DNA of 64,000 bases from positions 8,939 to 72,938 of the forward strand of contig CALMJI010000018.1 in assembly GCA_937864235.1 (NCBI GenBank), read 5' to 3'. This DNA is from an uncultured bacterium (GTDB taxonomy: Bacteria > Patescibacteriota > Minisyncoccia > SW-4-49-11). The first letter of the stretch is position 1. Every line of letters begins with the position of its first letter. The notes beneath the pieces are model-generated. The model did no database searches. It saw nothing but the letters and a program-made list of their open reading frames with translations, and was not told the DNA's origin. Both the position numbers and the translations under genes were made by a program. Positions 12,341-63,204 of this stretch are shown here, piece by piece.

Positions 12341-13537
12341 CTACTTAATAATTTTTGTTACAACTCCAGCACCAACGGTATGCCCACCTTCTCTAATAGC
12401 AAATCTTTGTTGATCGCTAAGAGCAATAGGAGCTACCAAGGAAACCTTTACAGTAACAGTATCTCCTGGCATAACTAATTCAGATCCTTCAGATAAAGTA
12501 ATCTCACCAGTTACATCAGTAGTTCTGATATAGAATTGAGGCTTATATCCTGATACAAATGGAGTGTGTCTTCCACCTTCTTCTTTTGTCAACACATAGA
12601 CTTCAGCTTCAAATTCAGTGTGAGGAGTAATAGAACCTACCTTAGCAAGAACTTGACCTCTCTCAACATCTTCTTTTTTGATACCTCTAAGAAGAAGACC
12701 AACATTATCTCCAGCCATACCTTCATCAAGAAGCTTCTTGAACATTTCAACTCCAGTTACAACTGTTTTTTGAGTGTCTTTTAGACCTACAATTTCTACT
12801 TCAGAGTTTACCTTGATGATTCCTTTTTCAATTCTTCCAGTAACAACTGTTCCTCTTCCTTCAATTGAGAAAATATCTTCAATAGGCATCAAGAAATCTT
12901 GGTCAATTTCTCTTACTGGTTCAGGAATAGCTTCATCTAAAGCATCAATAAGCTCTAAGATTGGCTTAGCATCAGCTGAATTAACATCTGTTGTCTCAAG
13001 AGCTTTAAGAGCTGAACCCTTTACAATTCTAGCATTATCTCCGTCGAAGCTATATTTGCTTAACAACTCTCTAACTTCAACTTCTACCAACTCTACTAGC
13101 TCAGGATCATCAACTTGGTCAACTTTATTCAAGAAGACTACAATTTGAGGAACTCCAATTTGATTTGCTAACAAAATATGCTCACGAGTCTGAGGCATAG
13201 GACCATCGGCAGCAGATACCACCAAGATAGCTCCATCCATTTGAGCTGCTCCGGTGATCATGTTCTTGATATAGTCAGCATGTCCTGGACAATCAATATG
13301 AGCATAATGTCTTGTGTCTGACTCATACTCAACATGAGCTACAGCAATGGTAATACCTCTTGCCTTTTCTTCAGGAGCTGCATCAATTTCATTAACAGCT
13401 TTTTTGGTAACTACATTTCCTCTTAAGTTAAGTACATTAAGAATAGCTGCGGTCAAAGTTGTCTTCCCATGATCTACGTGTCCAATAGTTCCAACGTTTA
13501 CATGGGGTTTTGTGCGCTCGTATTTCTCTGTTGCCAT
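12341..13537 (-). CDS. tuf: Elongation factor Tu
   Basis: [11 protein letters not shown]-loop, DCPGHADY and NKVD motifs; full-length 398 aa. Confidence 0.97.
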
Positions 13538-13634: not shown

Positions 13635-13680
13635 GTGTTTGTTTGTAATTATGAATTATGGGTTTTGAATTTTAAGTTAT

Positions 13681-13930
13681 AGTGACAACACCTCCCCCGA
13701 GGGAGGACAGTTACGTCTGTCCCTCGTCGGGGCGCGAAGGGTGGCAAGGAGTGCCGGGTTTGAACTGAGCGAAATTCCCCTCTTGAGGGGTGCCCGTAGG
13801 GCGGGGTGGATAAAATTAAAACTATAGTATGAACTTTAACCAATATCCACCTCCGGCCTAAAGGCCACCTCCTCCAAAGGAGGACAGAAATACCACAGAA
13901 TACTGTAGGAATAAACTCTACGCTACGAAA
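13681..13930. repeat. GC-rich island of REP-like hairpin repeats (GTAG/CTAC-flanked stems) plus one copy of a conserved 46-nt hairpin element (13845-13890)
   Basis: Local GC far above the roughly 30% background. Short perfect stems (CCTCCC-CCGA-GGGAGG; GGACAG-TTACGT-CTGTCC; CCCCTC-TT-GAGGGG; GGCC-TAAA-GGCC). GTAG at 13796 and CTACGCTACG at 13918-13927. No ORF with homology. Confidence 0.6.
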
Positions 13931-30106: not shown

Positions 30107-30152
30107 TTGTCCCTTTGTATAAACTTTAGTAAAGTTTATTGCTCAATCGTCT

Positions 30153-30200
30153 ATCCACCTCCGGCACTCCGTGCCACCTCCTCCTAAGGAGGACAAAAAA
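30153..30200. repeat. Second copy of the conserved hairpin element ATCCACCTCCGGC-hairpin-GCCACCTCCTCC-AAGGAGGACA
   Basis: Near-identical to 13845-13890. The internal hairpin differs between copies (GGCC-TAAA-GGCC versus GGCAC-TCC-GTGCC) while pairing is preserved. Confidence 0.6.
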
Positions 30201-30252
30201 TTAAGAGTATCAATCCCCTCTTAAACTGGTAAGGACAAGCCTTGGACTAACT

Positions 30253-30270
30253 GTCTCCCTTTGGAGGGAG
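30253..30270. repeat. 18-nt exact repeat GTCTCCCTTTGGAGGGAG (hairpin CTCCC-TTTGGA-GGGAG); second copy at 55789-55806
   Basis: Identical 18-mer found at two distant intergenic sites. Confidence 0.6.
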
Positions 30271-30284
30271 AAAAATAAAAATAC

Positions 30285-31445
30285 TTACAACCCAAATCTT
30301 CCTCTTGCTGCGTTGAAGTTATGTTGTATTTCACTTAAAGACAATACTCTATTATAAATTTGTAATGAAGAAATATTCCCTCTATAGGCCTGGATATCTC
30401 CAGACTGCCTTACCCCTAAGTAGTTGTTATCTGTAGTGATTGCTGGGGTATTTAATCCATTAGTATTAAATACCAGAGGAGAGTTGTTCCAATACATATT
30501 AAAATTAGATATATTTGTACTTCCAGACCCCATATATGTTATCGTTAACATTCCCCATAGATTTGGGGTGGGATAAAATGAAGTTTTTGCTTTTACCCAA
30601 CCATTATTATTTGCAATATAAAGTCCTTCATATCCAGAATTTAGTTGATTTACATAAGCAATTCCAAGAGTAGATGTACCAGATGATCTTAATGTAATCA
30701 TTCTATGAAAATCAGCTTGAGTTCCCACTTTGGGTTTTGGATTAACACTCATCCATAAATTTATGGTAAATGGATTAGAAGTTGATATAAAATAAGAAGA
30801 TCCTAAATTAATAAAATCATCAACTCCATCAAAAACCAAACTACCTAGATTAGCACTATTATATCCAACCCCATTCACAAGTGTTACATTATTATTTCCA
30901 CTAAGATCAAACCAAGTTGTCCCTGTCCCTGGATAGCTTGCTGCATTCCCTGCATCTAGGTGTAAAACTAGTCCATTATTTATTACATATGGATTAATTG
31001 AAATTAATCTATTCTCTGATAAATCTGCAGATACTCCTACTTTATTATTATTAGGATTTATTACTACATTATATCCTGTATTTGCTCCTGTTGCTTGGGG
31101 GTCTTTTGGGATGCCTGCTATGTATGTTGGGACTAATTCTCTCAAATCTGCTCTATCAGTACAGTTTGTTGATCCTCCTACCTGCTCTACTCCTGTATTA
31201 CATATATATCTAGGCGTTGTACTTATACTATTTGGATATCTTCCATTATCTATTAGATATTGTTCTAAGGCTTTATATATTGTATTTACATCTGACCTTC
31301 TTTGTGCATTCCTTGCTTGGGCTATTTGCCTGTTTGGATTTATGGCTACTAATACTATTGCTGCTAATATTCCTATTGCTGCTATTACTAAGAGTATCTC
31401 TAATAATGTAAATCCTTTTCTTGTTCTTTTATGATTTTGTATCAT
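30285..31445 (-). CDS. Type IV pilin-like protein with class III signal/N-methylation site and a C-terminal LamG (concanavalin A-like lectin) domain
   Basis: N-terminal RKG-FTLLEILLVIAAIGILAAIV (G/F cleavage site, Glu at +5). C-terminal roughly 230 aa with LamG-type beta-sandwich motifs (LVFDGVDDFINLG; NISSLQIYNRVLS). Confidence 0.8.
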   Translation of the reverse strand: MIQNHKRTRKGFTLLEILLVIAAIGILAAIVLVAINPNRQIAQARNAQRRSDVNTIYKALEQYLIDNGRYPNSISTTPRYICNTGVEQVGGSTNCTDRADLRELVPTYIAGIPKDPQATGANTGYNVVINPNNNKVGVSADLSENRLISINPYVINNGLVLHLDAGNAASYPGTGTTWFDLSGNNNVTLVNGVGYNSANLGSLVFDGVDDFINLGSSYFISTSNPFTINLWMSVNPKPKVGTQADFHRMITLRSSGTSTLGIAYVNQLNSGYEGLYIANNNGWVKAKTSFYPTPNLWGMLTITYMGSGSTNISNFNMYWNNSPLVFNTNGLNTPAITTDNNYLGVRQSGDIQAYRGNISSLQIYNRVLSLSEIQHNFNAARGRFGL

Positions 31446-31616
31446 ATATGTATATTAGTTTATATTGCTTTCTATATATTATTTTACCCCCCCGGAGCTT
31501 TTGTCAAGTTTTTTGAATGGTTTTTATATATATTTTTTGTTATATACCTTAGTTTGGGTTTTGGCAACGGTTGCAATTGTGGATATGTTTGGGTTGTAAT
31601 TGTGAATATTAAATTA

Positions 31617-31720
31617 TCTACCCTACCTCTTCGGGGACTTACTCCTAAGGGGAACAGAAAGCAAGCTACAAAAACAGCCCCCTCCACCTGCGGGTAATCC
31701 CTCCAAAAGGAGAGAAAACA
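31617..31720. repeat. GC-rich degenerate member of the CCTCC/GGAGG hairpin-repeat family in the pilin upstream region
   Basis: CTACCCTACC, CCTCTTCGGGG, and CCACCTGCGGG...CCCTCCAAAAGGAG, which resembles the 13845/30153 element. Confidence 0.4.
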
Positions 31721-31724
31721 AATA

Positions 31725-46232: not shown

Positions 46233-46286
46233 ATGAAAATATTATATCATAAACTCAATAAATTGTGAATTGCAAATTATATCATC

Positions 46287-46475
46287 CCTTCGTAGCGGAG
46301 GCTTTTAGTCTATCCCATACCTTGTTTGGGATGGGGTTTATCCCTCCATTTTTTCGTAGGAGCATGACACCCCCCTCCTAAAGAGGATAAAAGCTCCAGT
46401 ACAAAAATACCTCGGGCGACATAAGGCCGCCCCTACAAACACAAAACACAATTGAGGGACTTAAAGCCCTACGAT
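46287..46475. repeat. Cluster of REP-like elements: two forward GTAG-hairpins and two inverted hairpin-CTAC units (BIME/REPIN-like)
   Basis: GTAG at 46292 and 46356. GGTTTATCCCTCC at 46335-46347 matches the RAYT-internal hairpin. Hairpin GGGCG...CGCCC followed by CTAC at 46433; AGGG...CCCT followed by CTAC at 46470. Local GC is about 50%. Confidence 0.65.
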
Positions 46476-46540: not shown

Positions 46541-46569
46541 TTGCTATTTTTGGTATTTTATGCTATAAT
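46541..46569 (+). promoter_or_regulatory. Sigma70-like promoter for the tandem GspE / tsaE / fem operon
   Basis: TTGCTA (46541-46546), 17-nt spacer, TATAAT (46564-46569). The ORF-track start at 46541 is a TTG inside this promoter. Confidence 0.5.
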
Positions 46570-46591
46570 AATAATATATACTTTTATATTT

Positions 46592-49591
46592 ATGAGTTCA
46601 GTATTAAAACAAAAAAAATCTAATCGTCAAAGCTTTAGAGACAAATTGCATTCTGATAATGCAGTTGAGCTTAATTTAGCGGTAATTCACAAAAAAGAAG
46701 AAGAACTTAATACTCAAAGATTAGCTGACAATCTTGGTATGGCTTATCTGAATTTGCAATTTATTCCTATCAATCCCGATGCTTTGAAAATATTAACCAA
46801 AGAACAGGCTCAAAAGGCTAAAATGATTATTTTTCAAAGATCTGGACTACATCTCAAGATAGCTATACAGGATATATCTAATCCTGTTGCTAAGACTATT
46901 TTACAAAAATTATATCAAAATAAATATGAATTAGATTTATATTTGGTGTCAAAGTACAGTCTAGAAAAGGGATATAATGCTTACGCATTTTTACAAGATA
47001 GGAGTGAAGTTGTCAAAGATAAATTAGTAATTCCTTTTATGATGCTGGAGGATGTAAGGCAAGGAGTAGTAAATTTAGATGATTTTGCTAGTAAAATTAA
47101 CTCTGTTGACACTTCTGAATTAATTCAAATAATTTGTGCCGGAGCTATTACCTCTTTGGCTAGTGATATTCATATAGAGCCCAAAGGAGATATTACGCGT
47201 CTTAGATATCGTATAGACGGTGTTTTGCAGGATATTCTGAATTTTGATAATGCATTATATGAGTTGCTAATCTCAAGAATAAAAAATCTAGCTTCCCTTG
47301 TGTTGAATATTAAAAGCACCTCTCAGGATGGTAGATTTAGTATTATTATTCAAGAGGAAAATGGAAGGGTTAAAAAATCTATTGATGTAAGAGTTTCTAT
47401 ATTACCAAGTAAAACTGGGGAAATTATTGTGATGAGATTATTGAATGCTGAAATTCATAATCTAGATATTTATAGTTTTGGCATTCGAGAATCCTTTTTG
47501 AATACTATAGTTAGAAACTTGGATAAACCACAAGGTATGATTATGTTATCAGGGCCAACTGGATCTGGTAAAACAACTAGCCTTTATTCATTCTTAAATT
47601 ATGTGAATCGATCTGAGACCAATATTATTACTATTGAGGACCCAATTGAATATAGATTACCTAATATAAATCAAACTCAAGTGGATACTAAAAAAGGTTA
47701 TGATTTTGCAAATGGGCTAAAGGCTATTGTAAGGCAAGACCCTGACATAATTATGGTAGGTGAAATTAGAGATAATGAGACTGCGAATATAGCTGTAAAT
47801 GCCTCTATTACTGGACATTTGGTGTTTTCTACTATTCATACGAATGACTCTGTGGGTATTGTGACAAGACTAAAAGAATTTGGCTCTACTCCTCAACTTA
47901 TTATCTCAGCTATGAATTTATTTATTGCCCAGAGATTGGTAAGAAAATTATGTGAATGTAAAGAGGAATATATTCCTACTGAGTCAGAAGTTGACTTAAT
48001 CAAAAAGACTTTAGCTATTATTTCACCTAAATCTAATCTTACTCTCCCTCAGGAAATCAAAAAACTATATAAACCTAAGGGTTGTGTGAAATGTTATGGA
48101 ATTGGTTATAAAGGTAGAATTGCTTTATATGAATTGTTCGAGGCTAAGGATAATATTAGAGATTTAATTATTAATAATATTCCAGAATTTAAAATATTCC
48201 GTAAAGCGGTTGAAAATGGGATGGTGACTTTATTTCAAGATGGAGTTTTACATACAATAGACGGAGAAACTTCGCTTGAGGAAGTTTTATCTGTGGCAGG
48301 AGATATAGGGTATATAGACGAGATTTATGAGTCTACTCTAAGCTCGGCTTTATCTAGAGGAATTCATATCAAAAAATCAAGCAATACTCTGCCTGAAATT
48401 ACCCATCTCTCTGAATCTATGTCTATTGATGATCAGTTAACTGCTATTACCAATGCTGCTCTTGTAAAAAGAGCTACGGATATTCATCTTGAGCCTGATA
48501 TGGCTGATTTGATTATCAGATTTAGAATTGATGGAGTTTTGTATGAGGAAGCTCGTGTACCAAAATCTCTATACCCGCAAATTCTAACTCAAATTAAAAT
48601 TTTTACAGGACTACCTCTTGATATTGCTAATAAAATTCAAGAAGGAAGATTTACTATTTTTGCTGATAAAAACTTTGATGTGAGAGTCTCTATAATTCCA
48701 GGAGGCTATGGACAAACCATCGTACTTAGAATATTAAGGTCAGATATTGCCAAACTCAAATTGCAAGATCTCGGTATGGATGAATATAATATTAATCTCC
48801 TACAAGAGCAATTACAAGCTACTACCGGACTTATTTTGGTTACAGGACCTACTAGTGCTGGTAAATCTACTACTCTATATGCTACCCTTAATACTCTCAA
48901 TCAGCCTGGGGTAAAAATTATTACTATTGAAGATCCGATTGAATATAAATTATCTGGTATTTTGCAAACTAGCATCAATGAAGAGACTGGATATAGTTTT
49001 CCCAATGCTATTAGAGCTTTACTTAGACAGAATCCTAATATTGTCTTAATGGGAGAGATAAGAGATACCGAAACAGCTAAGGTAGCTATGCAAACTGCTG
49101 CAACGGGGCATCTTTTGTTATCTACCCTACACACTAATGATGCCGCCTCTGCCATTTTGAGATTATATGATTTAGGAGTTGGATTGTCTGAGATAGCTAC
49201 TTTTGTGAATGTAACTATAGCCCAGAGAATTATTAGGAAAATTGATCCAGAAACTGCTACTACTATCAACCTATCACAGGAGCAAAAAGAGATTATTAAA
49301 TCTAAATTGCCAGACAGATACCATAATTTAATTCCAGACACTATCCTAGAGGCTAATGCTAGTCCCGATCATCCAAATGGATATTATGGTATCACAGCCA
49401 TTTTTGAAGTTTTAGTATTGACTCCTAAAATTAAAGACGTTATTATCCAGCAAGCTTCAACGGCTAATATCAAAAAACTGGCTATTGAAGAGGGAATGAC
49501 AACTTTGGAAGTTTCTGGTATTCTAAAAGTATTAGACCATACTACTGATTTTGCCGAATTGGAAAGAGTATTGGGGATAAAAGTATTATAA
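46592..49591 (+). CDS. Tandem-fused double GspE/PilB-family secretion ATPase (two complete N2 plus ATPase modules in one 1009-aa polypeptide)
   Basis: Module 1 has Walker A GPTGSGKTT, Asp box IEDPIEY, Walker B MVGEIRD, His box GHLVFSTIHTN and a CxC...CxxC zinc motif. Module 2 has GPTSAGKST, IEDPIEY, LMGEIRD and GHLLLSTLHTN but no Cys tetrad. Each module is preceded by a GspE N2-like domain. Confidence 0.85.
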   Translation: MSSVLKQKKSNRQSFRDKLHSDNAVELNLAVIHKKEEELNTQRLADNLGMAYLNLQFIPINPDALKILTKEQAQKAKMIIFQRSGLHLKIAIQDISNPVAKTILQKLYQNKYELDLYLVSKYSLEKGYNAYAFLQDRSEVVKDKLVIPFMMLEDVRQGVVNLDDFASKINSVDTSELIQIICAGAITSLASDIHIEPKGDITRLRYRIDGVLQDILNFDNALYELLISRIKNLASLVLNIKSTSQDGRFSIIIQEENGRVKKSIDVRVSILPSKTGEIIVMRLLNAEIHNLDIYSFGIRESFLNTIVRNLDKPQGMIMLSGPTGSGKTTSLYSFLNYVNRSETNIITIEDPIEYRLPNINQTQVDTKKGYDFANGLKAIVRQDPDIIMVGEIRDNETANIAVNASITGHLVFSTIHTNDSVGIVTRLKEFGSTPQLIISAMNLFIAQRLVRKLCECKEEYIPTESEVDLIKKTLAIISPKSNLTLPQEIKKLYKPKGCVKCYGIGYKGRIALYELFEAKDNIRDLIINNIPEFKIFRKAVENGMVTLFQDGVLHTIDGETSLEEVLSVAGDIGYIDEIYESTLSSALSRGIHIKKSSNTLPEITHLSESMSIDDQLTAITNAALVKRATDIHLEPDMADLIIRFRIDGVLYEEARVPKSLYPQILTQIKIFTGLPLDIANKIQEGRFTIFADKNFDVRVSIIPGGYGQTIVLRILRSDIAKLKLQDLGMDEYNINLLQEQLQATTGLILVTGPTSAGKSTTLYATLNTLNQPGVKIITIEDPIEYKLSGILQTSINEETGYSFPNAIRALLRQNPNIVLMGEIRDTETAKVAMQTAATGHLLLSTLHTNDAASAILRLYDLGVGLSEIATFVNVTIAQRIIRKIDPETATTINLSQEQKEIIKSKLPDRYHNLIPDTILEANASPDHPNGYYGITAIFEVLVLTPKIKDVIIQQASTANIKKLAIEEGMTTLEVSGILKVLDHTTDFAELERVLGIKVL

Positions 49592-55709: not shown

Positions 55710-55741
55710 AGCCCCACAAGTAACTAGCGGGGCTTTTTTCT
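55710..55741 (+). terminator. Rho-independent terminator
   Basis: AGCCCC...GGGGCT stem followed by TTTTTTCTTTTT. Confidence 0.55.
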
Positions 55742-55749
55742 TTTTCCTT

Positions 55750-55870
55750 CGTAGGGGCGACCTTGCAGTCGCCTGTATTTGATATTTTGTCTCCCTTTGG
55801 AGGGAGTCCCCGTAGGGGGAGGTGGTCCCTCCAATACTTTGTTTGGGAGGGGACGGAGGAGGACTATACC
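55750..55870. repeat. REP-like GTAG-hairpin elements plus the 18-mer GTCTCCCTTTGGAGGGAG
   Basis: CGTAGG-GGCGAC-cttgca-GTCGCC (55750-55774). 18-mer identical to 30253-30270 (55789-55806). CGTAGGG-GGAGG-tggtc-CCTCC (55811-55832). GGAGGAGG-rich tail. Confidence 0.65.
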
Positions 55871-55931
55871 CCATTTGACAAAAATAGAAAATTTTAATAC
55901 TATAAATAACACTCTCAATGAGGAAAAACTA

Positions 55932-56282
55932 ATGTCAATTCCCTGCAAATACTCTAAAAAGAATTGGGAGAATATTTTAACCCTACTACAAAGGGCAAGA
56001 GGTTCAAAAAGTCAATCTGTAGAGAGGTACTATGGTTTTAGAAAGAGAGAAGCCCAAAAAGACACGAATGATATAGGGCAAACTGGGAATTCTATCAGAA
56101 CAATCGATTTAGCAATCAGTCAAATACGTCATAGCATTGAACAAGAAAATGAATCTGATCATATAATGATATTATTAGACATCAACATGTATCACTTAAT
56201 CGAAAGGTTAAGACGCAGAAAATTAAAGCTCAAAAAAATAAGAAGACAATACAATAATTCAATCACCACCCCGCTAAATTAG
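55932..56282 (+). CDS. Hypothetical protein with a strongly basic C-terminus
   Basis: GAGGAAAA RBS 8 nt upstream of ATG 55932. C-terminal RLRRRKLKLKKIRRQ. The track ORF from 55779 runs through the repeat region and is rejected. Confidence 0.5.
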   Translation: MSIPCKYSKKNWENILTLLQRARGSKSQSVERYYGFRKREAQKDTNDIGQTGNSIRTIDLAISQIRHSIEQENESDHIMILLDINMYHLIERLRRRKLKLKKIRRQYNNSITTPLN

Positions 56283-56294
56283 CGGGATTTTTTC
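56270..56294 (+). terminator. Rho-independent terminator overlapping the stop codon
   Basis: CCCGCTA-AAT-TAGCGGG perfect 7-bp stem followed by ATTTTTTC. Confidence 0.65.
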
Positions 56295-56303
56295 TTACTA
56301 GTA

Positions 56304-57894: not shown

Positions 57895-58443
57895 ATGAAA
57901 AGGCAGTATAATAGATTATCTAAAGAGCTTTATACTGGTGGTTTTTGGTATTTTGTGACTATATGTACAGATGATATGAAATGTATATTTGTAGCGGAGG
58001 GTTTATCCCTCCAAGACAACAAATTTATACTCAATTCTTTGGGTAAAATAGTGGAACAAGAAATTTTGAATTTGGAAAATAACTTTCGTAAAACAAAAGT
58101 TGAAAATTATATTATTATGCCCAATCATACTCATTTGATTATTTCTATTGATGAAGGTGCTACTAGAGTTAATTTTCAAAAAATGATTTCCTTAGGGGAT
58201 GTTGTTGGTTTATTAAAAGCATATACTCAAAAAAGGGTCAGAGATGAGTTAAATAAAAATGGAGGGATAAACCCTCCGCTACGAAATATTAAAGGAGTTA
58301 ACTTTAATAAAATTTGGCAAAAATCTTTTTATGATCATATCATTCGTAATGATAATGATTTACTAAGAATCCAAGAATATATTATAAATAATCCTATAAA
58401 CTGGGAGTTAGACTCTCTCAACCCCACCAATCTCAAAAAATAA
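57895..58443 (+). mobile_element. REP-associated tyrosine transposase (RAYT; IS200/IS605 TnpA-like Y1 HuH enzyme), single domesticated copy
   Basis: HuH motif (NHTHLII) and catalytic Tyr block (WQKSFYDHIIRND). 182 aa. No flanking IS ends. Starts 11 nt after the cca stop. Confidence 0.8.
57991..58012. repeat. GTAG-hairpin (GTAGC-GGAGGG-TTTAT-CCCTCC) inside the RAYT coding sequence; perfect inverted partner at 58261-58282
   Basis: The two 22-mers are exact reverse complements, 248 bp apart. Both lie in-frame within the ORF and match the intergenic elements at 46292 and 46335. Confidence 0.7.
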
Positions 58444-58795: not shown

Positions 58796-60838
58796 ATGGG
58801 AGTTAAAGCATCTAAACTAATTCAAATCACTGTCAACAATAATGATAGGTTAACTTTATTATCCTATCTTCAGAAAAATGCCATAGGTCAAATTATAGAA
58901 AAAATAGAAACTACTCCTCTTGATAAAGATTCAATTGAATTACAGCAAGATTTATTAGAAAAACTTGATATTATTAATAAAACAATTGATATATATAAAA
59001 TTTATCAACCTACTAAAAAATCGATTTGGGATAACTTTATTGACAATAAAATCCCCATAACAGAAAATATTCTTCATCATTATGAAGACAATATGATCGA
59101 TATTATAGCAAAAGCAGTCATAATAAATGATATTGCTGAAAGAAAAGATGATTTAATAGATAGACAAGATGTATTGAAAGACATTATTTCCCGAGTAGAA
59201 CCTATTAAAGATATTGAGATAGACATATTTGGATCATACAAATTTTTATCTTTTTTACCATTTTTGGTTGATGAATCTCGTGCTCATATTGTTACAAAGC
59301 AATTAAAAGAAAGTATATCATCAATTGTACTAGAGTCTGTTAAAAAAATTGGGACTGATTATCTTTATGTATTAGCAGTACCAAATTCTGAAACAAAAAT
59401 AGCTCACGATATACTTGAGAGTAAAACTACTCTCATAAATTTCCCATCTCAAGTTTCTGGCTCTTTTTATGATATTTATCATAAAAGCTTAAAGGAATTG
59501 CAAGATAATAAAAAAACTCTAAACTCTTTAAATAAGAATCTTAAATCAGCTAATGTGAATTTAAAAGATTTATATATAGTTAGTGATATAATAACCTCTA
59601 ATCTGAATCTGATTTCCTATCTTCACATGTTTACTAACAAAATAGAGGGTAAAGCTACTTTAGACCTATGGGTTGATGGTGATAAGCTAGACCAGATACA
59701 GAAGGAGCTGACATCCGTTATAAAAGACTGTGGATTGAACACAGCTCATCAATCTAAAAAAGTTGCCCCTGTGATAGTAAAAAACTCAGTAATTATTAAA
59801 AACTTTGAAACTATTACAAAAACAATGGGATTACCCAAAGGGAATGCTATTGATCCTACCTCATACCTGCTTCTATCCTTCCCTATTATGTTTGGGATTG
59901 CACTATCTGACGCAGGATATGCTCTTCTTTTTCTAGCTGTTACTGGAGTTGCATTACTACATCCTAGATTGAAATCAAATATTAGGAATATGTTTGTAAT
60001 AATTTTTGTTTCATCAATATTTAGCTTTATTATTGGAGCTATTACAGGTAATTGGTTTGGTTTAGTTCCTGATAAAGTAGATATGGCGACGGCATTACCA
60101 CATGTATTGTGGTTGGAATCAATCGGTTTACTAGGTTTTTTACAAGCCATTCATATTGTTGATCCTCTAGAGCATGTTGTAGGATTTATGATATTAACCG
60201 CCTCAATTGGAGTTATTCATATATCATTTGGGCTTGTATTAGGATTTGTTCAATCACTAAAAAAACAAGATTTTTGGGAAGAAGGCATAGAGTCAGTAGC
60301 ATGGTTTTGTGTTCTTGTGTTTGGAATATTGCTTTTATTGGCAAATCAAGGAATTCTTGGTAAAGATTTAAATAACCTTACTCAAATTCTGAAAATAGTA
60401 TATGGAATTATAGTTTTAGCAAGTGTTTATATATTGGGTCGTAATATGAAATCATTCCCTGCTAAAATTGGAAAGGGTCTATATGAATTATTTTTTGGAG
60501 TTATAGCCTATGTGTCTGAAATTTTATCCTATACTCGTCTTGTGGCTTTGGGTCTTGCTGGAAGTATTATTGCAGAAGTTGTAGGAACATTAGCTGGTCT
60601 TGCTGGTGGAGGTTTGGCGGAAAAAGGTGGAGTTTATTTTATACTAGGATATATAATTATAGTTATAATATTCTTAATAGGAAATATATTTAATATAGTC
60701 CTCTCTCTCTTAGCTACATATATCAATGTTGGTAGACTTCATTTTGTAGAATTCTTCAGTAAGTTTTTTAAAACTGGAGGAGAGCCCTGGACTCCAGTTT
60801 CAAGAAGTCATCAATATAGTATAATAGAGAAATCTTGA
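58796..60838 (+). CDS. V/A-type ATPase subunit I (a-subunit)
   Basis: Soluble N-terminal half plus roughly 8-TM C-terminal half with the conserved Arg (SYTRLVALGLAGSII). Confidence 0.85.
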   Translation: MGVKASKLIQITVNNNDRLTLLSYLQKNAIGQIIEKIETTPLDKDSIELQQDLLEKLDIINKTIDIYKIYQPTKKSIWDNFIDNKIPITENILHHYEDNMIDIIAKAVIINDIAERKDDLIDRQDVLKDIISRVEPIKDIEIDIFGSYKFLSFLPFLVDESRAHIVTKQLKESISSIVLESVKKIGTDYLYVLAVPNSETKIAHDILESKTTLINFPSQVSGSFYDIYHKSLKELQDNKKTLNSLNKNLKSANVNLKDLYIVSDIITSNLNLISYLHMFTNKIEGKATLDLWVDGDKLDQIQKELTSVIKDCGLNTAHQSKKVAPVIVKNSVIIKNFETITKTMGLPKGNAIDPTSYLLLSFPIMFGIALSDAGYALLFLAVTGVALLHPRLKSNIRNMFVIIFVSSIFSFIIGAITGNWFGLVPDKVDMATALPHVLWLESIGLLGFLQAIHIVDPLEHVVGFMILTASIGVIHISFGLVLGFVQSLKKQDFWEEGIESVAWFCVLVFGILLLLANQGILGKDLNNLTQILKIVYGIIVLASVYILGRNMKSFPAKIGKGLYELFFGVIAYVSEILSYTRLVALGLAGSIIAEVVGTLAGLAGGGLAEKGGVYFILGYIIIVIIFLIGNIFNIVLSLLATYINVGRLHFVEFFSKFFKTGGEPWTPVSRSHQYSIIEKS

Positions 60839-60930
60839 TATCCTTTCTTCTATATGGCTAGTTATTAACTAGAAATATAGTGGAAAGGATACCAAAAGAG
60901 TATCCTCAATTATGAATTTAAGATAAATTT

Positions 60931-61410
60931 ATGGAAGTATTAGGAATTAGTCTAGCAGTATTAGGGGCATCTGTTGCAGCTGGTCTTGCTGGCGTTGGAT
61001 CAGCGATTGGAGTTTCAAAAGCTGGGCAATCTGGTTCAGGACTCATTGTAGAAGATGCGACACAATTTGGTAATGTATTGTTATTACTTGCTCTACCTGG
61101 ATCTCAAGCTATATATGGTTTGTTAGCTGCTCTACTCATTCTACAAAATATTGGGATTTTGTCAGGAGAGTTTTCTGAGATTAGCTGGCAAAAGGGACTT
61201 ATATTAGCTTTCTCATCTATCCCTGTAGGTTTAACTGCTTTAGCCTCTGGTAAGTATCAAGGGGATCTAATTGCTAGTGGAATACAAATTATATCAAAAG
61301 ATAAAAGTAGATTGGGTCAAGTAATTATTCTGGCTGCTTTAGTTGAAACATTTTCTGTATTCGGACTTTTGATATCTATTCTTATTATTAATGGAGTTCC
61401 TCTTACATAA
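60931..61410 (+). CDS. V/A-type ATPase proteolipid subunit K (c)
   Basis: Duplicated hairpin of four TM helices, Gly/Ala-rich, with the conserved Glu in the last helix (ALVETFSVFGL). Confidence 0.85.
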   Translation: MEVLGISLAVLGASVAAGLAGVGSAIGVSKAGQSGSGLIVEDATQFGNVLLLLALPGSQAIYGLLAALLILQNIGILSGEFSEISWQKGLILAFSSIPVGLTALASGKYQGDLIASGIQIISKDKSRLGQVIILAALVETFSVFGLLISILIINGVPLT

Positions 61411-61412
61411 CT

Positions 61413-61949
61413 ATGGATTTAAGTAAATATATTCAAGATAAAGTAGATATTGAGTTAAATAAGCTCAGAGAAAGTTTAGAGCTTGAATTTAATGATACTA
61501 AACAATATTGGGATAGAGAGTTAGCATCTGTTAAAAAAACACATAATGATGAGATTGATCAAGAAGTTAATATTAATATTAACTTCAAAAAATTCCAAAA
61601 TAGCAAAACTAGTAAATTCAATTCTGGCTATGCTATACAATCCCAATTAGAGCAAATTTATACTGAATCTTTACCAGAAATTCTAGCTTCTAACTTTGTA
61701 AAAACTTTAATTCAAGACACTCTTCAGGATATTCCACAGAACACAACTTTAAACATAACTGGACAATATAGCAAAAATTTAGAAACTATTATCAGTAGCT
61801 TTGGGTATAAATCTAATTTAGTTGAAAATAATGCTAGTTTAGGTAAAATCACTGCCTCATTAAATCATATTAGTCTAGAAATTACTGTTGAGGACATTTT
61901 AGATGCTGTAAAGAAAAAAACATTAGCTTACATAATCAAGGAAATATGA
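61413..61949 (+). CDS. V/A-type ATPase subunit E
   Basis: Position and size in the operon; helical N-terminal segment. Call is by synteny. Confidence 0.6.
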   Translation: MDLSKYIQDKVDIELNKLRESLELEFNDTKQYWDRELASVKKTHNDEIDQEVNININFKKFQNSKTSKFNSGYAIQSQLEQIYTESLPEILASNFVKTLIQDTLQDIPQNTTLNITGQYSKNLETIISSFGYKSNLVENNASLGKITASLNHISLEITVEDILDAVKKKTLAYIIKEI

Positions 61950-62887
61950 GTTTACAACTTCCTATAACTAGCGTTACTAGTAGGTATTTAGTTAGGTTAG
62001 AGCGCATACCATCATCTAATGAAACTAAAAGTTTGTTTAATATAGATAATATTGACTATTGTATAAGTTTAATTAAAGAATCTTTCGGACTATTGGATGT
62101 GAATCTGGATAATGTTATATTAAAGCTTAATGACTATTATAATCAACAGATAAGTGAGGTTTTGTCTTTGTTGCCAGCAAATTCTGCTTCCTTTATATAT
62201 CTAAACCTATCACAAGATTTTGAGAAGCTCAAAAACATAGCTATTAATAAAACTATTTATGGAGAACCTCTGGGAGAAAAAGGGTTTGAACAAATGATAA
62301 ACGAAACTCCTGGTAAGTTATATTATTCAGATAAGTTTAAATCAAAATTATTAGCTAAAGAGGAAAAATTAATTCACTCTCACGATAGCTTTAGCCTCAT
62401 TTCTTATTTAGAAGAAATATTTTTAACCCTATTATTTGAAAATTTAAAAGATGGGAATAAAATTATGAAAGACTTCATTTTAGCTAAAATAGATAGCTAT
62501 ACCCTACTCAATGTTTTAGCTAGAACTCAAAAAGGTCAATCTAAAGAGCATATTTTAAGACACTTATTACCAATTCAAGGAAGTTTTGCTATCAATGCGG
62601 TAAAAGGATTTAGTTTTGGAGACGTGTTAGGAGATATTGGTCAATATTTAAATTTAGCTCCTGTAGATATAAATACCATCAATATTGAAAACACCCTTAT
62701 TAAAAATGAAATCAAGACCATAAATAGAGCTCAATTTAGCGGTATGTCTGGAGATAGAATTATTCAATATACCGAGAGATTACAATATGCTATTTCAAAC
62801 TTTAAATTACTGATTTTACAGCATTCTAAGAAATTTGATTCCAAGCAAGCTAAACTAAGATTTATAGATTATTCCAATATATGTTAG
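61946..62887 (+). CDS. V/A-type ATPase subunit C (V0 d-type)
   Basis: Roughly 310 aa helical protein between E and F. Call is by synteny and size. Confidence 0.6.
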   Translation: MSLQLPITSVTSRYLVRLERIPSSNETKSLFNIDNIDYCISLIKESFGLLDVNLDNVILKLNDYYNQQISEVLSLLPANSASFIYLNLSQDFEKLKNIAINKTIYGEPLGEKGFEQMINETPGKLYYSDKFKSKLLAKEEKLIHSHDSFSLISYLEEIFLTLLFENLKDGNKIMKDFILAKIDSYTLLNVLARTQKGQSKEHILRHLLPIQGSFAINAVKGFSFGDVLGDIGQYLNLAPVDINTINIENTLIKNEIKTINRAQFSGMSGDRIIQYTERLQYAISNFKLLILQHSKKFDSKQAKLRFIDYSNIC

Positions 62888-63204
62888 ACTATAAAAAACC
62901 AGTTATAATTGCCGATGCTGATATAACTTTATTATTCAAGTTATTTGGGTTTGAGACTTTGAATAGCAATGAATTAGAAATGGATCAAATTATCGTTAAT
63001 ATTCAAAAGGATGCCGAAATGTATGCTATTATATTTATAGCCTCTAATATAATATTAACTCCTAAACAAAGAAAACTCCTTAACTCACTCAATATACCTA
63101 TTTCGCAGATACCTATTAGCTCAGATAGCAATTCCGTTGAGGAGTTAAAGCATCTCACCGAAAAAGCAGTAGGTATGAGCCTAGACAAATTATTCACCTC
63201 TTGA
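62881..63204 (+). CDS. V/A-type ATPase subunit F
   Basis: 107 aa ([20 protein letters not shown]) immediately before the A subunit. Confidence 0.7.

Follow-up and report, generated by a model that had tools for sequence, protein, structure and literature searches.

The class of modular pilins was defined by Raynaud et al. (2021; PMC8179133), and its most frequent architecture, IPR012902-PF13385, comprises 229 proteins (their Dataset S1) and is represented in their figure by a protein from Ca. Magasanikbacteria, a bacterium of the Candidate Phyla Radiation (CPR). Here we describe a gene of this architecture, an uninterrupted open reading frame (ORF) of 386 aa plus stop at 30285-31445 on the minus strand of a 64-kb stretch of contig CALMJI010000018.1 from an uncultured, ultra-small Minisyncoccia bacterium (CPR/Patescibacteria), the whole of which is referred to below as the window. 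The domain architecture of the encoded protein is identical to that of the Raynaud modular pilins, a prepilin module (N_methyl) followed by one C-terminal LamG domain (PF13385), with the junction at residue ~151; the LamG modular pilin architecture is already known, and the window gene is an ordinary example of this documented class. The earlier survey, however, was an InterPro census and did not cover the relationship of the head to phage proteins, the mosaic core cassette within it, or the carrier that is shared by interchangeable heads, which are the subjects of the present analysis. We interpret the protein as a modular type IV pilin acting as a pilus-displayed adhesin with a phage-type receptor-binding cassette, and give this whole package a probability of roughly 0.6.

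The best experimental analogue for the probable working of the window protein is PilC of Streptococcus sanguinis, a modular minor pilin with a concanavalin A (ConA)-like lectin module that binds glycans and has been modelled as part of a tip complex (Shahin et al., 2023; PMC9934059). In both proteins a pilin module carries a ConA-like lectin module; however, the pilin moiety of PilC is unusually short and needs PilA for stability, whereas the carrier of the window protein is a complete GspG-like pilin of ~140 aa, and PilC is encoded inside a pil locus, whereas the window gene is a singleton among housekeeping genes. Homology to PilC was considered and rejected, as the profile search against PDB sequences detected no sequence relationship and PilC was absent both from its matches and from the 50 Foldseek matches listed. 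In Saccharibacteria (TM7x), the lectin-like minor pilins PilX1 and PilX2 have been implicated in sugar-inhibited host binding (PMC11623550). These, too, are CPR pilins that carry an additional beta-jelly-roll or lectin-like domain at the C-terminus, but they come from another CPR class and are encoded in type IV pilus (T4P) loci, and the domain of PilX1 is not recognisable by CD-Search, whereas the head of the window protein is a clear member of PF13385/phrog_24074. A different kind of relative is found in the LamG proteins of phage tail modules (phrog_24074, phrog_8510), which align with the head from end to end. In cultured cyanophages and Flavobacterium phages the domain occurs at 28-34% identity in genes annotated as "virion structural" or adjacent to tail fibres, as in the C-terminus of the "virion structural protein" p176 of cyanophage S-PM2 and in gp050/gp051 of Flavobacterium phage immuto, and in metagenomic standalone proteins the identity rises to 45-72%. 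These phage proteins sit beside tail-fibre or tail-tubular genes, and in them the LamG domain is either a protein by itself (~240 aa) or the C-terminal part of a long, fibre-like one, whereas in the window it is fused to a pilin.

That the protein is a pilin with a LamG head is close to certain. Its N-terminus, MIQNHKRTRKG/FTLLEILLVIAAIGILAAIVLVAI, gives Gly-1, Phe+1 and Glu+5, and is recognised by Pfam N_methyl (26.3 bits, cut-off 21.2) and by TIGR02532 (28 bits, cut-off 16.3), and K10, G11, F12, T13, L14 and E16 of the prepilin motif are invariant or nearly invariant in 69 full-length homologues. The canonical prepilin N-terminus, which had been proposed earlier from the bare letters of the DNA (the sequence-only reading), is therefore upheld. 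An AlphaFold model built from the same 69 homologues (mean predicted local distance difference test score, pLDDT, 86; predicted template modelling score 0.77) shows a long N-terminal helix at 14-67, a small sheet at 79-150, a beta-sandwich at about 159-364 and then a C-terminal helix, so that the carrier has the arrangement of an extended alpha-helix at the N-terminus packed on an antiparallel beta-sheet that defines the pilin fold. This carrier is closest to major (pseudo)pilins, namely EpsG, PulG, C. difficile PilA1 and Thermus PilA4, its fold being nearest to EpsG, and on the pilin side the family profile matches geopilin, GspG, PilA and PilE among PDB sequences. Among family models, the carrier is matched best by those of the pseudopilins GspG and GspH; the best NCBIfam model, GspG (TIGR01710), scores 47.7 bits against an equivalog cut-off of 88.85 and covers residues 10-73 only. 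Identity as the GspG major pseudopilin was rejected on account of this score and because no type II secretion system (T2SS) genes were found in the window. Compared with GspG, EpsG and PulG, the family of the window protein is set apart by its Cys82-Cys95 pair and by its C-terminal head. In total 2797 homologues were found, overwhelmingly from metagenome-assembled genomes (MAGs) of Patescibacteria/CPR (Paceibacteria, Parcubacteria, Minisyncoccia), with a few from third-party MAGs whose titles name other phyla.

The sequence-only reading had further claimed a C-terminal LamG/ConA-like beta-sandwich of ~230 aa, and this was confirmed at the level of both family and fold. Pfam Laminin_G_3 (PF13385) matches residues 206-374 at 41.4 bits (cut-off 27.6), the modelled sandwich together with the C-terminal helix gives a head of about 235 aa, and Foldseek with the full model returned LamG-like lectin domains at a probability of 1.00 (E 8e-11 to 1e-8), its neighbours being the lectin-like domain of trypanosomal trans-sialidases, domain 4 of AbnA and the Hc regions of clostridial neurotoxins (BoNT/TeNT). 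On the LamG side, the family profile matches 4qvs among PDB sequences (E 8.8e-18), as well as pentraxins, neurexin LamG and pappalysin. Fold recognition of the head succeeded and the prepilin peptidase site is present, the two points on which the earlier reading had said that it would fall. Among PHROG profiles, the head matches phrog_24074 with an E of 4.5e-33 and phrog_8510, a "virion structural protein", with an E of 7.5e-13, and it scores far better against phrog_24074 than against the Pfam LamG model. Glycoside hydrolase (GH16-like) activity was considered and set aside, as no E-x-D-x-x-E catalytic motif of the GH16 type was seen on visual inspection of the sequence and the domains nearest in structure are lectin-like and non-catalytic.

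The head gives a co-linear, near-gapless alignment with 14 standalone LamG proteins, which begin within a few residues of the pilin-head junction, and short pilins of 167-171 aa, whose alpha1 helix is nearly the same as that of the carrier, stop exactly there; residue ~151 corresponds to the C-terminus of the short pilins and to the N-terminus of the standalone LamG proteins. The last residues of a pilin are thus joined to an entire LamG domain whose family is one of phage virion proteins. Within the head, the 69 full-length LamG homologues vary in a particular manner: the carrier and both head edges are about 60% identical pairwise; in the 140-aa core (216-355) the mean pairwise identity is 0.16, and its correlation with carrier identity is r = 0.02. 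This hypervariable part is the putative binding core of the head. The core of the window protein (aa ~205-365) is unrelated to the heads of the 68 homologues that have the same carrier, and is 60-92% identical (25-residue sliding windows) to proteins without this carrier, the sliding-identity plot of the head showing the crossover.

The closest of these proteins (P0010) is a standalone LamG protein of 242 aa, 72% identical overall at the amino acid level and 79% identical over 597 nt by blastn (locus L093), whose gene stands in tandem with another LamG gene and adjoins two phage tail proteins (phrog_5939, E 1e-65 and 1e-74) on a contig of 31.5% GC. A 69% identical head (P0018) is borne by a different prepilin carrier encoded directly after pilC/T2SSF, and a 63% identical one (P0045) is encoded in a podophage contig of 61% GC with BPP-1/T7-like structural genes; in blastn, nt 613-1095 of the pilin gene match a podophage gene (L089:6745-7566) at 73% over 483 nt. 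Standalone copies at a greater distance (49-50%) occur next to tail-fibre genes in a myophage contig (L092) and in tandem in a 153-kb contig, and at least 191 IMG/VR contigs encode a full-length relative. The head core is a mosaic cassette common to phage tail-module genes. Given this shared core, together with the co-linearity of the head with standalone LamG proteins and the coincidence of the junction, the gene looks as if a complete pilin had been fused to an entire LamG protein of phage type, the core of the latter having been exchanged afterwards. We also observed that the podophage gene at L089:6745-7566 (Logan SRR21722015 contig), which belongs to a structural module, has a GC content of 62% in codons 1-90 and of 32-39% in codons 91-240, the part that matches the pilin head core at 73% in DNA and where GC at third codon positions is 0.10-0.27; this AT-rich island looks like a recent transfer from a low-GC donor to a GC-rich phage.

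The same findings could be taken to mean that the head was captured from a phage infecting this very bacterium and that it serves in phage defence or competition, through receptor masking on own or sister cells or through self-aggregation, and not in host attachment. The closest head does lie in a phage tail module, whose GC content of 31.5%, against 32.5% for the genome, is as for a similar low-GC host, and physically no exchange is easier than one between a phage and its own host. Nevertheless, the same cassette has entered the podophage of 61% GC, for which this low-GC bacterium cannot be the host, and the surroundings of the gene showed no sign of defence genes, although no scan was made with the PADLOC defence library. 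The carrier also bears heads of many unrelated folds, described below, which fit a general adhesin repertoire better, and we consider this reading very unlikely.

The LamG domain is one of several heads that this carrier bears. The ~150-aa carrier is joined to at least five other heads, being fused at the same junction (aa ~151) to PA14/GLEYA, fibrinogen-C, FGE-sulfatase, Gly-rich or unknown domains, and these proteins are 66-75% identical to the carrier of the window protein through residue ~151 and then continue into a different domain. Single genomes encode several different-headed paralogues together with the short 167-171-aa pilins. FGE-sulfatase (PF03781) heads on the same carrier were noted in P0094, P0102, P0114, P0116 and P0119, and also in L011, L030 and L031; the FGE-sulfatase domain has a C-type-lectin-like fold typical of the targets of diversity-generating retroelements. 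Diversification of the LamG head by such an element was rejected by inference, as its variable region spans ~140 aa of a LamG fold, no reverse transcriptase was seen in the window, and the variation takes the form of cassette replacement. A Gly_rich_2 (PF21722) protein (L092:10950-11333) is encoded directly after the LamG gene in the myophage tail region, and Gly_rich_2 also occurs as a C-terminal head on the pilin carrier (P0100, P0105, P0111), making it a second head type common to phages and these pilins. As a wider and tentative proposal, to which we give less than an even chance, receptor-binding heads may form a single pool, under active exchange, that serves both phages and CPR bacteria of the Paceibacteria type. 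According to this proposal, the conserved carrier would receive whole domains from phage tail modules (in the window protein LamG, in its paralogues PA14/GLEYA, fibrinogen-C, FGE-sulfatase/C-type-lectin-like and Gly-rich domains), and the LamG core cassette would move by recombination at conserved edges among pilins, low-GC phages and the GC-rich podophage.

The window has a GC content of 32.5% and a housekeeping gene content, with nusA, tyrS, leuS, recA and pheST around the pilin gene; the prepilin motif of this gene is the only one in the window, and the gene is the sole pilin gene in about 82 kb of contig (the window plus 10-kb extensions on either side). Conserved synteny was not found: the closest full-length homologues in species genomes (46-49% identical) lie in unrelated housekeeping contexts, where they are scattered singly, and tyrS or leuS stands beside a pilin in two metagenome loci in different orientations. 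Among the metagenome matches listed there were no close relatives in which a near-identical locus carries a different head. Two related genomes, L084 and L085, share a syntenic block of a glycosyltransferase, a 363-aa protein, a phosphorylase and L27, running on to a TraG-like ATPase and a class Ib aminoacyl-tRNA synthetase, and their LamG pilin genes stand at different points of this block, which suggests that pilin genes are gained, lost or relocated singly.

The only T4P gene other than the pilin in this 82 kb is an ATPase gene, and genes for a prepilin peptidase (Peptidase_A24), PilC, PilM/N/O or a short major pilin were not found there. Both halves of this ATPase score best to GspE/PilB models and not to PilT. 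It had been called an unusual fused GspE, a description that has to be withdrawn: in a database search, 118 of the 120 best matches were full-length tandem GspE/PilB proteins of ~1000 aa, down to about 40% identity, and such proteins were found across Parcubacteria, Moranbacteria, Falkowbacteria and Minisyncoccia, so that the tandem form is common in CPR. The nearest relatives of the ATPase are 85-92% identical and the nearest pilin 59%, and judging from these identities the putative motor is therefore conserved while the pilin evolves fast.

With assembly genes not adjacent, homologues scattered singly among housekeeping genes and the pseudopilins GspG and GspH as best carrier models, it might be asked whether the protein is a filament subunit at all. 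The class III signal peptide could instead target and anchor a membrane-tethered or released surface lectin, or the protein could belong to a short pseudopilus-type device. However, both the entire globular fold of a pilin and the invariant Glu+5 have been conserved, as would be expected only of a protein for which polymerisation matters; moreover, 13 metagenome loci have a carrier-type pilin 4-5 kb downstream of a PilB-type ATPase gene, an operon-like proximity in other CPR contigs, and the pilin P0018, with its related head, adjoins pilC. We therefore hold a role outside the filament to be quite improbable.

If the protein is a filament subunit, whether it is a minor or an abundant one has to be asked. 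A minor or tip position seems to us an even call when judged by itself. The opposite possibility is a major or abundant co-major subunit of a "furry" pilus, with a LamG head on every subunit, giving multivalent lectin fibres in place of a tip adhesin. The resemblance of the carrier to major (pseudo)pilins, with GspG as best NCBIfam model, would agree with this, as would the presence of Glu+5, a strong promoter match and the position of the gene as the only pilin gene in the region. On the other hand, the short 167-171-aa pilins of related genomes, with almost the same alpha1 helix, are better candidates for the filament body, the presence of several different-headed paralogues per genome fits accessory subunits better, and a rigid 26-kDa head on every subunit may clash sterically. 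On this balance the furry pilus is unlikely.

The adhesin reading can be set out as a series of steps. A PilD-type peptidase would cut after Gly11 and methylate Phe+1, and the protein would then co-polymerise with short paralogous pilins into a type IV pilus, as suggested by Glu+5 and by an alpha1 helix nearly identical to theirs. A PilB-type ATPase would serve as the motor, for which the tandem ATPase at 46.5 kb is a candidate. The protein would probably be a scarce subunit, its 26-kDa head displayed at the tip or surface of the filament, where the LamG domain may bind a surface glycan or other surface structure of a partner cell. CPR bacteria are episymbionts. Binding specificity could be changed by recombination at the conserved edges of the head (around an FDG motif and a YNR...NFNA..GRFGL tail), the putative source being a pool of heads shared with phage receptor-binding proteins. 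The sequence-only reading had offered an adhesive or tip pilin or a DNA-uptake pilin: by analogy with the precedents of lectin-bearing pilins, an adhesive role appears to be the best reading, and DNA uptake is left unsupported because the head belongs to a lectin/phage virion-protein family and not to a DNA-binding one.

Several points weigh against this interpretation. Ligand-binding residues could not be assigned in the head, and LamG domains are able to bind proteins as well as glycans. The phage homologues are labelled "structural" or lie in tail modules, a receptor-binding role having been demonstrated for none of them. The model has no low-confidence linker (pLDDT about 86-96 across the junction), and a bulky head attached as rigidly as modelled could limit where it fits in the filament. 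From the likeness of the carrier to major (pseudo)pilins and its Glu+5 alone, minor and major subunits cannot be distinguished. Finally, since PilD, PilC and PilMNO are missing from the 82 kb examined, processing and assembly are deduced from what is known of the family.

The interest of the locus lies in the question of host recognition. Little is known of host recognition and attachment in CPR/Patescibacteria, and most of the lineages have no known host. What is new here is DNA-level evidence of a receptor-binding core circulating between CPR pilins and phage tail modules, and a near-intact phage-type head with close copies in phage tail clusters offers a concrete handle on the host question. 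Since such copies exist, specific glycan binding by the head and shared targets of phage and episymbiont become testable. If a pilin and a phage protein with the same head do bind the same receptor, phages with known or predictable hosts would reveal the attachment partners of CPR bacteria, and head-sharing could predict CPR hosts from metagenomes.

Table 1. Positions in the window of the modular pilin gene, its parts, its flanking elements and the candidate motor gene.
Feature	Coordinates	Strand	Basis
Modular type IV prepilin gene, 386 aa plus stop	30285..31445	-	ORF; Pfam N_methyl and Laminin_G_3 above cut-off; 2797 homologues; AlphaFold model
Class III signal-peptide leader, aa 1-11 (MIQNHKRTRKG); predicted prepilin-peptidase cut after Gly11	31413..31445	-	Sequence; 69 homologues; TIGR02532
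Mature pilin carrier, aa 12-151: alpha1 helix 14-67, Cys82-Cys95 loop, small beta-sheet, I-S-I-N junction end	30993..31412	-	
Head, aa 152-386, a LamG (ConA-like) beta-sandwich; aligns co-linearly with entire ~240-aa LamG proteins that stand alone in phage tail modules	30285..30992	-	PF13385; Foldseek; PHROG; alignment
Exchangeable core cassette of the head, aa ~205-365	30351..30833	-	Hypervariable among same-carrier pilins, common to phage genes; blastn, sliding identity
Promoter-like site TTGACA-18-AATAAT; implies a 5' untranslated region (UTR) of about 25-30 nt	31478..31507	-	Match quality; like layout at other window genes
Repetitive extragenic palindromic (REP)-like GC-rich hairpin cluster between leuS stop codon and pilin promoter	31596..31724	-	Fold z; 83% complementary to element 55785-55825; direct-repeat family D1
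Cluster of REP-like hairpins separating the pilin gene from tyrS, between their convergent stop codons	30136..30284	.	Perfect hairpins; D1 copy; fold
Candidate pilus-assembly motor: 1016-aa tandem fusion of two GspE/PilB-type units, N-terminal MshEN	46541..49591	+	Pfam T2SSE in two stretches plus MshEN; link to pilin inferred only

Upstream of the gene, the sequence-only reading had seen a long structured leader, with GC-rich hairpins of a repeat family in the 280 nt before the start codon. Hairpins of the repeat family do occur, confined to the distal part immediately after the leuS stop codon, and the leader itself was not borne out. The distal part folds at -41.3 kcal/mol on the minus strand, with a z of -2.2 against shuffles, the z of the plus strand being -0.25. 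Nearer the gene, the last 150 nt before the ATG are rich in AT and show no structure (z +0.5), and the 279-nt region as a whole folds no better than shuffles (z -0.84). Downstream of the hairpins, 33-62 nt before the ATG, lies a near-consensus promoter match of the sigma-70 type (11/12), which comes from a consensus scan in which promoter-like sites as a class were not enriched over shuffles. The same layout of hairpin cluster, A-rich spacer and promoter also precedes a 398-aa gene at 12341-13537, presumably EF-Tu to judge by its size and position rather than by any scan, and a small ORF at 55933-56282.

It is extremely improbable that these hairpins form a cis-regulatory leader, either an attenuator or a riboswitch-like element, controlling pilin expression. 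The distal 129 nt fold better than shuffles on the sense strand and much better than on the antisense strand, and another hairpin cluster lies upstream of the ATPase gene, both as a leader would have it. However, the hairpins stand upstream of the best promoter match, and the proximal region is unstructured; an Rfam scan of the whole window returned one tRNA-Thr only, with no match in the neighbourhood of the pilin gene; repeats of this family also stand beside genes of other kinds (the 398-aa gene, tyrS and the small ORF); and three close full-length homologues (46-49% identical) have an upstream region of just 32-112 nt without the hairpin element. A regulatory leader was rejected, then, for want of structure in the 5' UTR, of conservation in orthologues and of a known RNA family. 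Intrinsic termination was rejected as well: a terminator scan was negative for both of the intergenic regions that flank the pilin gene, the one match that it gave being antisense inside the coding sequence, and U-runs precede the hairpins and do not follow them.

The hairpins on both sides of the gene are read as REP-like elements, although not every feature of REPs is found in them. As in REPs, they are short, GC-rich, imperfect palindromes in multiple intergenic copies, and the reading rests on their dispersal as one family over five clusters, their bias to non-coding DNA and a transposase-like ORF in the window. The five intergenic clusters, in a window of 32% GC, lie at 13679-13885, 30141-30271, 31600-31720, 46283-46443 and 55743-55875 and are linked by repeat families D1 and I3, and of 12 GC-rich hairpins that are perfect, 7 are located in non-coding DNA, which makes up 9.5% of the window. 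The hairpins are of the types CCTCC-loop-GGAGG, GGCGAC-loop-GTCGCC and CCCC-GTA-GGGG, their orientation following the local genes, and near-identical GGCGAC-CTTACA-GTCGCC units occur as inverted pairs in related genomes (L085, L086). In the cluster between the pilin gene and tyrS, perfect hairpins lie at 30177-30192 and 30254-30271 and a D1 copy, 93% identical to the reference copy, at 30173-30199; the fold z of this cluster is -1.4 on the minus and -2.4 on the plus strand. The transposase-like ORF (57895-58443, plus strand, 182 aa) has an HUH-like motif (NHTHLII) as well as FYDH and matches NF047646, the model of REP-associated tyrosine transposases (RAYTs), with an E of 1.9e-16 and 60 bits, below the 80-bit cut-off. 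Two 26-nt inverted GC-rich units, GTAGCGGAGGGTTTATCCCTCC (57988-58013 and 58260-58285; 96% complementary), of the GTAGC-GGAGGG...CCCTCC type, lie inside this ORF and do not flank it. Of the GT[AG]G that is conserved beside REP palindromes, GTAG adjoins some of the hairpin units, not all, and the copy beside the pilin gene has GCAG. A literature search found no paper linking REP/RAYT elements to CPR. The pilin gene may have its own promoter as its start of transcription, with the flanking REP-like hairpins possibly punctuating operons. Two first impressions are corrected, the "leader" being a dispersed repeat and the fused ATPase normal for the lineage.

Elsewhere in the window, terminators with a stem-loop and T-run were seen by eye at about 55711-55745 and 56268-56297. 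The small ORF at 55933-56282 (plus strand) encodes a basic protein of ~116 aa, with no Pfam family match when scanned within the longer ORF 55779-56282, and it stands just upstream of the tRNA-Thr gene with a promoter-like TTGACA...TATAAA of its own at ~55876, the second of these terminators being at its end. Further along, a V/A-type ATPase operon (subunits I, c, F, A, B and D) occupies 58796-63204 of the window and continues beyond (L087).

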